Source of the DNA: an uncultured Gemmatimonadales bacterium
GTDB lineage: Bacteria > Gemmatimonadota > Gemmatimonadetes > Longimicrobiales > RSA9
Direction: 5' to 3'
Length of the DNA stretch: 64,000 bases
Assembly (NCBI GenBank): GCA_963783305.1
Contig: CAWAMW010000015.1
Coordinates: 411,885-475,884, forward strand
Shown here: in pieces, positions 10,587-13,946 of the stretch
Layout of the letters: each line of letters begins with the position of its first letter
How positions within the stretch are numbered: position 1 is the first letter of the stretch
Notes under the pieces: model-generated
Database searches by the model: none
Seen by the model: the letters and a program-made list of their open reading frames with translations, nothing else
What the model was told of the DNA's origin: nothing
Position numbers and translations under genes: made by a program

Positions 10587-13064
10587 ATGGAACAGCTGCG
10601 GCGGGACCTCGTCTACGCCCTTCGCGGGCTTCGAGGCGCTCCCGGCTTCGCCCTGATCGCCATTGCCACGCTGGCGCTGGGGATCGGGGTCAACAGCACC
10701 ATCTTCAGCGTAGTCAGCGCCGTGCTCTTCCGGCCACTGCCGGTCGAGCGGCCGGTCGAGCTCGTGGACGTGTACGGCCACGCCGCGACGGCGGGGACCC
10801 ACGACTCCAGCTCCTACCCGAACTACCTGGACTACAGGGAGCAGGCGAGCACCCTCACCGGCCTGGTTGCGTACACGAACTTCTTCGCCACGCTCACGCT
10901 GGAGGGGCGCTCGGAGCTGGTCGTGGGCGAGGCCGTATCCGACAACTACTTCGCTGTCCTGGGCGTTCGGCCCGCTCTCGGCCGGCCGTTCGTAGCCGAG
11001 GACTTCTCCGCACGAGGCACCTACCCGGTAACCATCGTGAGCCATCCGTTCTGGCGGAGCCGCCTGGGAGCGGACCCGGAGGCGGTCGGTCGGCCGGTCC
11101 GTATCAACGGCACGACGTATACGGTGGTGGGGGTGGCGCCGCGGGGTTTCGGCGGGATGATGCCCGCCGTGACCGCGCAGCTGTGGATCCCGCTCGCCAT
11201 GGTGGACGAGGTGGAGCCGCTGGGGAACCGGCGGTACACGGGCGGCGCCGGAGGGGTGTCGCTGCTGGACCGTCGCGGTCAGCACTTCCTGTGGCTGCGC
11301 GGGCGGATGGCGAAGGGAGCGCAGCTCGGCCAGGTGCAGGCGGAGCTCCAGTCGATCGCGGCTCGGCTCGCGGATGCGTACCCTGAGACCAACGAGCTCG
11401 AACGCGTGACCGTGCTCCGGACCCGCAATGTTTCGCTCAACCCGGACATCGACCGGACCGTGGCGCCGGCGGGGCTGGTGCTGATCGTGTCCGTCGGGCT
11501 CGTCCTCCTGGTGGCGTGCGCCAACCTGGCCAACATGATGCTCGCGCGAGCCACGTCCCGTCGCCGCGAGATGGCGCTCCGGCTCGCCCTCGGCGCGACC
11601 CGCGGCCGGCTGGTCCGCCAGATCCTGGCGGAGAGCATGGTGGTCGCGCTGGCGGGCGGCGCGATCGCCGTCCTCCTGGCGCGGTGGCTGACCACCCTCC
11701 TCGCCCGCTTTCAGCCGCCCCTCCCCATCGATCTCGGGCTCCGGGTGGACCCCGACTGGCGCGTGCTCCTCTTCACCTTCGGCCTGGCCGTGGCGACGGG
11801 CGTGGCGTTCGGCCTCTACCCCGCCCTCCGCGCGTCACGCCCGGAGCTGGTACCGGCGCTCAGGGACGCGGGCGAGGGCGAGGCGCGCGGCCGTCACGGG
11901 ATCGAGCTGCGGGATGGGCTGGTGGTGGCCCAGGTCGCGTTTTCCCTGGTCCTGCTGGTCACAGGCGCCCTCCTGATGCGAAGCATGGGGCAGGCCGCAC
12001 GCATCGACCTGGGATACGACAGCGACCGGATCGCCCACCTCGGCATGGCGCTGGAGATGAACGGCTACACCGGCGCCGACGCCCGCGCACTCCTGGACGC
12101 CGGCACGCTTCGGCTCCGGGCACTGCCGGAGGTCAAGGCCGTCGGGCTCGCTTCGCGGGTCCCGCAGTCACTCAACAACAACGGGTTCGGCATCTTCATC
12201 GACGGCCACCAGGGCTCCAGCGCCGATACCCCGTACCGCCTCGACGGCGCCTACATCGACGACGGGTATTTCGAGGTGCTGCAGCTCCGCATCGTGGCCG
12301 GGCGCGGCATCGAGCCCGCCGACCGCGACGAGCGCCGGCGCGTGGCCGTGATCACCGAGACCATGGCCGCCAGGTTCTGGCCCGACGGCGACGCCCTGGG
12401 ACGCGCCTTCCGGACAACGTGGGAGGGGGAGCCATACGAGGTGGTGGGGATCGTGGAAGACTACAGGGTCGATACCCCCGGCGAGGCACCCAAATCGTAC
12501 GTCCACCTTCCCCTCGATCCCGCGGGAACCTACGCCAACTTCCTGGTGCGGACCGCCGCCCCCGCCGCGCCGCTGGTGCCGGCACTCGAGGCGGAGCTGC
12601 GCACGCTCGACCCGGACCTCGTTTTCCTCGGCACCGGTACGCTCCGCCAGCTGGCCACCGTTCGCATATTTCCCATCCGCGCCGGCGCCTGGCTGATCGG
12701 CGCTGCCGGTATCCTCGCCCTGCTCCTCGCCGCTGTGGGGCTCTACGGCGTCATCGCGTTCTCCGTAAGCCGTCGCGTCCGCGAGATCGGCATCCGGAAA
12801 GCACTCGGCGCTCGCACGGGCAGCGTGCTCGGCATGGTGCTGCGGAAGGGGATGACGCTCGTGCTGGTGGGCGGCGCCCTCGGCGCGGTTATGGCCGCCC
12901 TGGCGGCACGGGCGCTCTCCGCCGTCCTCTTCGTTGACGCCTTCGACCTGCTCAGCTTCGGTGCGGCCTTCGCCGTGCTCCTCCTCGTGGCCGCGCTCGC
13001 CAACTGGATACCGGCCCGACGCGCATCGCGCGTCGAGCCGATGACCGCGCTCCGGGGGCGCTGA
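10587..13064 (+). CDS. ABC transporter permease, duplicated MacB/FtsX type (ADOP family)
   Basis: MEQLRRDLVYALRGLRGAPGF..LALGIGVNSTIFS, LVACANLANMMLARATSRRREMALRLALGA, RREIGIRKALGA-like second repeat, PARRASRVEPMTALR. Confidence 0.93.
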   Translation: MEQLRRDLVYALRGLRGAPGFALIAIATLALGIGVNSTIFSVVSAVLFRPLPVERPVELVDVYGHAATAGTHDSSSYPNYLDYREQASTLTGLVAYTNFFATLTLEGRSELVVGEAVSDNYFAVLGVRPALGRPFVAEDFSARGTYPVTIVSHPFWRSRLGADPEAVGRPVRINGTTYTVVGVAPRGFGGMMPAVTAQLWIPLAMVDEVEPLGNRRYTGGAGGVSLLDRRGQHFLWLRGRMAKGAQLGQVQAELQSIAARLADAYPETNELERVTVLRTRNVSLNPDIDRTVAPAGLVLIVSVGLVLLVACANLANMMLARATSRRREMALRLALGATRGRLVRQILAESMVVALAGGAIAVLLARWLTTLLARFQPPLPIDLGLRVDPDWRVLLFTFGLAVATGVAFGLYPALRASRPELVPALRDAGEGEARGRHGIELRDGLVVAQVAFSLVLLVTGALLMRSMGQAARIDLGYDSDRIAHLGMALEMNGYTGADARALLDAGTLRLRALPEVKAVGLASRVPQSLNNNGFGIFIDGHQGSSADTPYRLDGAYIDDGYFEVLQLRIVAGRGIEPADRDERRRVAVITETMAARFWPDGDALGRAFRTTWEGEPYEVVGIVEDYRVDTPGEAPKSYVHLPLDPAGTYANFLVRTAAPAAPLVPALEAELRTLDPDLVFLGTGTLRQLATVRIFPIRAGAWLIGAAGILALLLAAVGLYGVIAFSVSRRVREIGIRKALGARTGSVLGMVLRKGMTLVLVGGALGAVMAALAARALSAVLFVDAFDLLSFGAAFAVLLLVAALANWIPARRASRVEPMTALRGR

Positions 13065-13104
13065 CCCCCGAGCGCCGGGGACATCCCCCGAGCCCTGCTC
13101 TCGT

Positions 13105-13121
13105 GCCGCCAGACCGGCGGC
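13105..13121 (-). promoter_or_regulatory. Candidate bacterial SECIS element
   Basis: Minus strand TGA-AGAGTGGGCTGA-GCCGCC-GGTCT-GGCGGC; the apical GG begins 18 nt after the TGA at 13136-13134, as in E. coli fdhF. Confidence 0.7.
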
Positions 13122-13340
13122 TCAGCCCACTCTTCAGCCGCCGCCCGTCCAGGTGCTGGTCGAGCATGCCCCCGCTCCCCCACCACCGGACCCACCAGTG
13201 ACGGACGCGGTGGACATCCCCAGCTCCGTCTCATCGCTCCCGCAGTCGGGGCAGCTCGGCGCTTCCGCGCGTTCGCTCATCCGGCGCATGGCCTCGAAGC
13301 GTCGATTGCACGCGGCGCAGCGGTATTCGTAGATTGGCAT
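13122..13340 (-). CDS. FmdB-family zinc-ribbon protein; candidate selenoprotein (68 aa if TGA 13134-13136 is a stop, 72 aa with Sec69)
   Basis: [11 protein letters not shown]...FE...CPDCGS signature; tail [21 protein letters not shown] with SECIS-like hairpin. Confidence 0.9.
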
Positions 13341-13490
13341 GGCGTCCTTTACTATTCTAGTAGACAGTACAGTAATATTACCCCGCCGCCCTGCCAAGGG
13401 GCGGGGGCGGGTGGAGCAGGAGGCTTGCCCGCGGCGGCCGGAGCAGAGTCGAGGCCGACTGACCCCTCTCTCAATGAACCAGAGGCCCGC

Positions 13491-13946
13491 ATGTTCAAGG
13501 AATTCAGGGAATTCGCTGTTCGCGGCAACGTGATCGACATGGCCGTGGGGATCATCATCGGGGCGGCGTTCGGCGGAATCGTGCAGTCGCTGGTGAAGGA
13601 CATCCTGATGCCCCCGATCGGACTGCTGTTGGGCGATGTGGATTTCGCGGACCTGTTCATCCTGCTGAAGGAGGGTGCGGAGTCGGCGCCGTACGCGACG
13701 CTGGAAGCCGCAAGCGCGGCCGGCGCGGTGACGATCAACTATGGGGTGTTCCTGAACGCGCTGATCAGTTTCATGATCGTGGCGTTCGCGGTCTTCCTGC
13801 TGGTGCGCTACATGAACAGGCTTCAGCGCCCGGTGGAAGCGTCGGGCCCGGTGGTCCCCACGATAAAGCGGTGCGAGCACTGCGCCACGGAGATCCCCAT
13901 CGCCGCGAAGCGCTGTCCCAACTGCACGTCGCAGCTGACGGAGTGA
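13491..13946 (+). CDS. mscL: Large-conductance mechanosensitive channel with C-terminal zinc-ribbon extension
   Basis: [44 protein letters not shown]...[12 protein letters not shown]; tail CEHC...CPNC. Confidence 0.96.

Follow-up and report, generated by a model that had tools for sequence, protein, structure and literature searches.

A predicted C-terminal selenocysteine in an FmdB-family zinc-ribbon protein of a Gemmatimonadales bacterium and its homologs in several phyla

The locus examined here lies in a 64,000-nucleotide stretch of DNA (the window) from an uncultured Gemmatimonadales bacterium, where a small FmdB-like open reading frame on the minus strand ends at a TGA codon followed by three further codons, a second TGA and a GC-rich hairpin. 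Is the first TGA a stop, or is it a selenocysteine (Sec) codon, and what would the extended protein do? The first-pass annotation had proposed a selenoprotein with a hairpin like that of E. coli fdhF, and its minus-strand reading of the frame, the TGA, AGA GTG GGC, the second TGA and the hairpin was confirmed on the sequence. From sequence comparison, we put the probability that the first TGA is read as Sec at roughly 93%. The features of the locus are as follows.

10590..13064, plus strand: convergent ADOP-family ABC permease, a neighbour with an approximate start (TIGR03434, 814 bits)
13105..13121, minus strand: SECIS-like hairpin in the 3' UTR with six G-C pairs and a GGTCT loop, 18 nt past the TGA (pairs interchange in homologs)
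13122..13124, minus strand: second TGA, the predicted real stop, abutting the hairpin stem (the second stop varies in homologs, the first does not)
13125..13133, minus strand: AGA GTG GGC (Arg-Val-Gly), the predicted true C-terminus (GI, GVG and GIG in the closest relatives)
13134..13136, minus strand: in-frame TGA, the predicted selenocysteine codon, Sec69 (TGA in 72/72 one-Cys-tail homologs vs 55/112 Cys-rich paralogs)
13137..13340, minus strand: FmdB-family zinc-ribbon frame, 68 aa by gene callers (profile matches, CxxC pairs)
13164..13166, minus strand: codon of the tail cysteine Cys59, the putative partner of Sec69 (nearly invariant in two homolog alignments)
13350..13369, no strand assigned: degenerate palindrome TACTRT-N8-AYAGTA, a candidate repressor operator just upstream of the ribosome-binding site
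13488..13946 (or from 13425), plus strand: divergent mscL, a neighbour with an approximate start (profile matches)

The gene and the hairpin behind its first TGA

The frame opens with an ATG at 13340-13338 and runs for 68 codons up to the TGA at 13136-13134. Its assignment to the FmdB zinc ribbons, already made in the first-pass annotation, is upheld by profile searches, in which TIGR02605 scored 65.4 bits (cut-off 31.3) and PF09723 59.2 bits (cut-off 34.4). The ribbon cysteines form two CxxC pairs at residues 8/11 and 30/33, all four ligand residues being encoded by Cys codons, and beyond the ribbon lie a Gly/Ser-rich arm and a single tail cysteine, Cys59. The public protein collection gives the product as 68 aa. 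With recoding, the product would have 72 residues and end in Cys59 ... Sec69-RVG, and the 68-aa entry would be a truncation at the TGA of the kind expected of standard gene callers. Among the neighbours, a convergent FtsX/MacB-type permease is also present behind the FmdB gene of another genome (G014), and the adjacent MscL carries an additional zinc-ribbon-like CxxC...CxxC segment at its C-terminus, which DZR matches weakly (E 0.0035). The source genome also encodes a second FmdB paralog (C7:226258, plus strand), which lacks Sec and continues into a long Ser/Gly/Lys tail, an architecture like that of the chaperone Ruc.

The hairpin reads GCCGCC-GGTCT-GGCGGC, and its 5-nt loop begins 18 nt past the first TGA. 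Where GGTCTG had been taken for the apex of a 6-bp stem, the 6-bp stem and the 18-nt offset stand and the loop is GGTCT, the last G closing the stem. The proposed likeness to fdhF covers the offset and the G-U of the loop and goes no further: the window stem is perfect and lacks the bulged U of the fdhF stem, whereas G22-G23-U24 of the window hairpin, in fdhF numbering, are the positions that match the E. coli element. A bacterial SECIS model, as described in a 2026 review, allows a loop of 3-9 nt, a stem of 4-16 bp and a spacing of 16-37 nt, with a G within the first two loop positions and a minimum free energy of at most -7.5 (PMC13188914). The window hairpin agrees with all four constraints (5-nt loop, 6 bp, GG start, 18 nt), and the folding energy of the 42 nt around it is -14.9 kcal/mol, within the limit of the model. 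SelB bound to this hairpin just past the stop would direct Sec insertion at the first TGA; the second TGA, we infer, sits too near the stem for recoding.

Taken singly, the hairpin is no more stable than shuffled sequence (z -0.84, with 36/200 shuffles of the 42 nt as good), and the case therefore rests on comparison. In the source genome a comparable hairpin stands behind 78 of 3140 coding-like gene ends, and a TGA with a hairpin and a next stop within 6 codons was found at 4 of 2009 TGA ends. TGA, hairpin and short tail combine in 67 of 72 one-Cys-tail homologs (see below), and the combination of TGA, hairpin and near second stop exceeds chance.

The first-pass annotation had also raised the possibility that the hairpin is not conserved or is only the terminator of the convergent permease gene. 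It is present in those 67 of 72 homologs, it is retained in relatives although their downstream neighbour genes differ, and neither strand has a terminator-like site or a U-tract at this position; a role as terminator was rejected on these grounds. A second hairpin with a CGGGG-ATGT-CCCCG core lies at 13066-13093, between the SECIS-like hairpin and the permease stop, and it too has no U-tract.

Stop codons, hairpins and Sec machinery across homologs

Homologs were sought at several depths. From 60 relatives searched, with 30 loci fetched, three genomes gave the same ending, (S/N)(T/A)WTGGG-TGA-G(I/V)(G)-stop, and in these the GCCGCC/GGCGG stem is retained and the loop altered (GGTTC, CGTGG, GGTCC). 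Five further relatives from the same 60 end in GFT-TGA-A(A/R)-stop, with another stem and a GT loop. The best 120 of 151 protein matches comprise 30 that end in W[TS]GGG and 74 that end in xF[TSGR]. The pattern scans of GTDB and of metagenomes permitted any stop and also Cys, and that of the host's own phylum permitted any stop. The loose GTDB scan returned 120 loci, six of which are in-frame FmdB genes, all with TGA (from Desulfobacterales, Syntrophales, Bacillota, Gemmatimonadaceae and one unclassified genome); the metagenome scan returned 120 loci, 116 of them usable; and the own-phylum scan found matches in 24 of 301 genomes, one being a chance match. The Chloroflexota scan had matches in 15 of 251 genomes and yielded just two Sec-type genes, the remainder belonging to other classes or to chance; a TIGR02605 search of the same genomes gave at least 150 matches, which do not enter the counts. 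An alignment search of 251 Chloroflexota genomes in which stops of any kind were read through had 47 matches. Of these, 25 are short-tail genes, all with TGA and 1-6 further residues (two had been part of the query alignment), and the other 22 are Cys-rich, with 11 TGA, 6 TAG and 5 TAA.

For a pooled test, 226 distinct FmdB-like genes were classed solely by the number of tail cysteines, the stop being ignored. In the one-Cys class the first stop is TGA in 72/72, with no TAA or TAG, the next stop follows within 6 codons in 72/72 and the hairpin is present in 67/72. The class with three or more tail cysteines has TGA in 55/112, a short extension in 17/112 and the hairpin in 3/112, and none of its members has all three features. 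Intermediate classes were small: the two-Cys genes have TGA in 14/16 and all three features in 8, the genes with no tail Cys have TGA in 6/8 and all three features in 1, and 14 long and 4 unclassed genes include none with all three. The one-Cys and Cys-rich classes differ with a Fisher p of 2e-16, a value uncorrected for kinship among relatives that are not independent. Removal of four control sequences from unpublished genomes left 72/72 against 54/108.

A direct Cys-for-Sec homolog, the customary proof of a selenoprotein family, was sought as a Cys codon following GF[TSG] or W[TS]GGG and was found neither in the best 120 of 151 protein matches nor among the 226 genes. The interchange of TGA and Cys anticipated in the first-pass annotation was thus borne out on the TGA side, with no TAA or TAG in the one-Cys class, and lacked a Cys-aligned homolog on the other. 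The part of a Cys counterpart seems to fall to the paralogs with Cys-rich tails, a loose equivalent.

Across 77 homologs the stem positions interchange C-G, G-C and A-U and the loop keeps a G followed by U or G, with the key loop G 20-27 nt from the U of the TGA. Since MAFFT gave no useful alignment of tail and hairpin for the first nine genes, these pairs were counted per sequence. Each sequence had its stem register chosen individually, and family members were already known when the hairpin test was drawn up, so the genome-wide controls matter to its interpretation.

A conventional reading of the locus would make the TGA a plain stop, the hairpin a structure that stabilises or terminates the 3' end of the mRNA, and the use of TGA a result of GC bias. 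It can draw on the fact that TGA is the commonest stop of the source genome (2009/3140 ends), on the unremarkable stability of the hairpin by itself, on the lack of a Cys homolog and on one carrier genome, G425, that has the gene without selA or selB matches. GC bias is argued against by the second stop of the same genes, which is mixed (48 TGA, 17 TAG and 12 TAA in 77 candidates) while the first is invariant, and by the genes under 58% GC, where TGA is found in 15/15 one-Cys genes vs 2/9 Cys-rich genes. Also at odds with a plain stop are the fixed spacing, the G-(U/G) of the loop, the missing U-tract and the Cys-rich paralogs of the same genomes, which are without any of these features. We therefore consider a plain stop very improbable.

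The source genome (G000, 4.35 Mb, 96% complete) encodes selA, selB, selD and a tRNA-Sec with a TCA anticodon, so that the check for selA, selB, selC and selD named in the first-pass annotation came out in favor of Sec use. Its selD carries an in-frame TGA of its own; behind this codon, and behind the in-frame TGAs of two OsmC-like genes, lie GC stems topped by 5-nt xG(T/G)xx loops. The OsmC-like genes (C15:305923 and C16:684432, both plus strand) have a GCGCGC-loop-GCGCGC hairpin and are probably further selenoproteins; against the model NF041052, OsmC-related (seleno)protein, they score 22 and 18 bits, far under the cut-off of 95. At C16:526426 (minus strand) an in-frame TGA connects two coding-like frames and is followed 36 nt later by a hairpin; this could be a gene junction instead of a Sec codon. 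An apparent TGA in selA of another genome (G342) was rejected as a model overrun ahead of the start codon. The source genome also has 19 tRNA genes clustered on one strand at C2:112817-115285.

Carriers of the gene mostly have selA: 22/23 vs 242/301 genomes in the host's own phylum (p 0.058), 24/25 vs 191/251 genomes in Chloroflexota (p 0.012) and 6/6 among the GTDB carriers, in tallies that include genomes flagged unpublished and that by themselves carry none of the conclusions. This association is weak, Sec use being widespread in both phyla (base rates 76-80%), and the Cys-rich Chloroflexota genes, 22/22, are also within selA genomes. The own-phylum exception (G174) has a selB match and no selA or tRNA-Sec above cut-off. 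In G425 (3.1 Mb) no selA or selB match was found above cut-off despite a gene with TGA and hairpin (G425:C21), which may reflect an incomplete bin, a mis-binned contig or a relic. Overall, selA was very common in the Gemmatimonadota sample (242/301) and the Chloroflexota sample (191/251), and it was not found in 12/12 genomes of one family of the order to which the window belongs.

The upstream palindrome and proposed function

The palindrome upstream of the gene is the sole perfect TACTRY-N8-RYAGTA in the 4.35-Mb source genome. Scored on a matrix of the sites of relatives, it reaches 12.1 bits, a value that 83 genome positions attain, with the outer arms kept. The related form WCTRYAT-N4-ATRYAGTW lies upstream of many such FmdB genes within one portion of the host's family. 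An exact search of 12 relatives gave 12 sites in 8 genomes (control 0), of which seven precede FmdB genes (5 Sec-type, 2 Cys-type), a share that is circular since the pattern was derived from them. The other five sites are at two thioredoxin genes, one OsmC gene and one efflux operon, with one between metal-resistance-like and chalcone-isomerase-like genes. A slightly different pattern gave 2 sites in 31 further genomes vs 3 in a reversed-pattern control, and these two precede a rhodanese-YgaP gene (with a divergent glutaredoxin) and a thioredoxin gene. Within the source genome the top site is C17:372481, before an OsmC gene (24.3 bits), followed by weaker sites at C7:155576 (18.1 bits), at an outer-membrane efflux/MFP/RND operon ending in a YgaP-like gene, and at C16:138207 (16.3 bits), before a thioredoxin gene. 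The palindrome is clade-limited and weak in the window. The thioredoxin, OsmC and rhodanese genes that share it point to a likely part for the FmdB protein in thiol and sulfur stress, and a repressor bound to the palindrome would keep transcription off. This gene set resembles those controlled by the ArsR-type persulfide repressors YgaV and BigR, a likeness that favors a redox arm directed at peroxide or sulfane sulfur. In another family of the same phylum (f4), an AT-rich CAAYAT-N4-ATATTG-like palindrome precedes most Sec-type FmdB genes and is present only at the FmdB genes themselves, in 6/12 genomes.

The last cysteine lies 4-10 residues ahead of the TGA in 74 of 77 candidates, the remaining three lacking a Cys within 10 residues of it, and this marks Cys59 and Sec69 as a conserved pair on a flexible arm. 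A structure model built with 103 sequences (mean pLDDT 61.1) has three strands of moderate confidence within residues 3-40, a pLDDT under 50 for residues 43-59 and no helix or strand past residue 40, and the arm is accordingly predicted to be disordered. The single-sequence prediction reached a pLDDT of 44.9. Confidence in the 103-sequence model is too weak for a fold search. The PDB contained no close solved relative, just generic zinc fingers and ribbons, and an Atlas search returned FmdB clusters only.

On the reading that we favor, peroxide or persulfide would be taken up by a selenenylsulfide that Cys59 and Sec69 form reversibly and that thioredoxin reduces again, and the ribbon would hold Zn and may release it upon oxidation, as in Ruc. 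We infer such a small, thioredoxin-recycled redox arm in thiol or sulfane-sulfur stress at about even odds.

Two other functions would follow from the same recoding. The Cys/Sec arm might bind or deliver a soft metal or cluster (Cu, Hg, Ni, Fe-S), Cys and Sec standing in for a tail of 3-5 Cys. Such a role would suit the Cys/His-rich tails of the paralog class, e.g. CCGGGCGCH, the further Cys that some Sec-type tails bear after Sec (GISSC, RTSFC, AGASC, AGGC), single neighbours encoding a ZIP transporter, a DUF302 protein, an FTR1 iron permease and a hemerythrin, and the palindrome site beside a metal-resistance-like gene. It fits poorly with the fact that 7/8 non-FmdB palindrome sites lie before thioredoxin, OsmC or rhodanese-YgaP genes or an efflux operon and not before metal pumps, and with the gene context: no conserved neighbourhood of the gene, metal genes included, was found among 79 flanking frames (one longest frame per side, some real neighbours being missed). 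We regard metal handling as rather unlikely. Alternatively, the protein might be mainly an oxidation-activated holdase like Ruc, with Sec as a low-threshold trigger of Zn release. Ruc (Rv0991c) shares the plan of a four-Cys zinc ribbon and a disordered, Gly/Ser-rich tail, it has been demonstrated to bind Zn, and it is activated by oxidation in a manner that requires the tail, as far as these points are covered in the available part of its description (PMC7448276). The arm here is about 30 residues long, with a conserved C..(W/F)..U motif at its end, the separate long-tailed paralog without Sec (C7:226258) is read as the Ruc-like protein of this genome, and the 79 flanking frames held no chaperone genes, all of which speak against a holdase, and we judge this function unlikely. 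The redox arm on peroxide or sulfane sulfur is thus favored over a metal arm, a Ruc-like chaperone and the absence of recoding.

Relation to described selenoproteins and FmdB proteins

The first-pass annotation was right that Sec-containing FmdB proteins have been reported, and in the published accounts, so far as available, their Sec is in the ribbon and not in the tail. Two FmdB selenoproteins from GOS reads have predicted Sec at ribbon positions 8 and/or 11 (PMC2398784), a 2022 review gives FmdB as U/CxxU (PMC9312934), and in the accessible text of the 2026 review of 119 prokaryotic selenoprotein families FmdB figures solely as UxxU, a differing Sec position being treated there as a distinct subfamily (PMC13188914). 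The GOS proteins resemble the window gene in their TIGR02605 domain and in their predicted TGA and SECIS-like hairpin; they differ in that the window ribbon is all Cys, its predicted Sec is separated by 3 residues from the end of the chain and its SECIS-like stem falls outside the coding region. By term search, FmdB did not appear in deep-Sep (PMC12013277) or SelCysML (PMC13745706), in the text or part of the supplement of BSepDB (PMC13326102), or in the main text of the Haft and Gwadz preprint, as far as that text was available, and NCBIfam 20.0 had no Sec-specific FmdB model among the families listed. The 'FmdB' of PMC11227280 and PMC4807772 is formylmethanofuran dehydrogenase, an unrelated meaning, and was set aside. 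No description of an FmdB form with C-terminal Sec was found in the literature searched, and this form is apparently an uncatalogued subfamily distinct from the published FmdB selenoproteins.

The recoding mechanism and the domain are known, and the Sec site, the breadth of the family and the candidate regulon were not found in print; the TWTGGG-U subtype and the shared upstream palindrome are new here. A broader proposal, which we offer only tentatively, is that of a subfamily (Gemmatimonadota, Chloroflexota, Desulfobacterota and Bacillota) that would rank among the most widespread uncatalogued selenoproteins of bacteria, with truncated database entries, and whose swinging Cys...Sec arm would be a dedicated persulfide scavenger or sulfur carrier within a thioredoxin/OsmC/rhodanese regulon, one Cys and one Sec replacing a multi-Cys tail instead of a single Cys. 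If the C-terminal Sec form across several phyla is real, it adds a common family that searches for Cys/Sec pairs miss, because no direct Cys homolog was found and the stretch behind the TGA is just 1-6 residues long. Many FmdB proteins in databases would then be without their likely active residue, 104 of the best 120 of 151 matches ending in W[TS]GGG or xF[TSGR]. The locus would also be a natural test case for a bacterial SECIS wholly inside the 3' UTR, and the shared candidate operator would give a first handle on the role of a poorly understood family of small proteins.

Sec at or near the C-terminus, as predicted here, is also a feature of SaoC (Cys-Cys-COOH family, NF040734), of the KCU-star proteins (NF033934) and of the GCUG arm of mammalian thioredoxin reductase, which are unrelated in sequence and have an adjacent CU motif vs the C-x(4-10)-U of this family; nine aligned members gave no match to NF040734 or NF033934 among the families listed. 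According to the SaoC preprint, in the part available, PGAP is unable to predict C-terminal Sec correctly (10.1101/2022.07.06.499078). The dual CXXC selenoprotein NF041197 (OS_HP3 / hypothetical protein DW) is likewise small with two CxxC motifs and Sec, and no match to it was found in the source genome (the control genomes were blank as well) or among the families listed for the window protein. Ruc would be the closest characterised relative in plan, the likeness being one of architecture; in the available part of its description neither Sec nor a tail Cys/Sec pair is mentioned (PMC7448276). The FmdB paralogs with Cys-rich tails have the same ribbon and arm as the window gene, as well as the same upstream palindrome in two genomes (G022, G030), and differ in their three or more tail Cys, their mixed stops and the scarcity of the hairpin (3/112). 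One relative (G003) has two Sec-type copies, each with the palindrome and a nearly identical hairpin.
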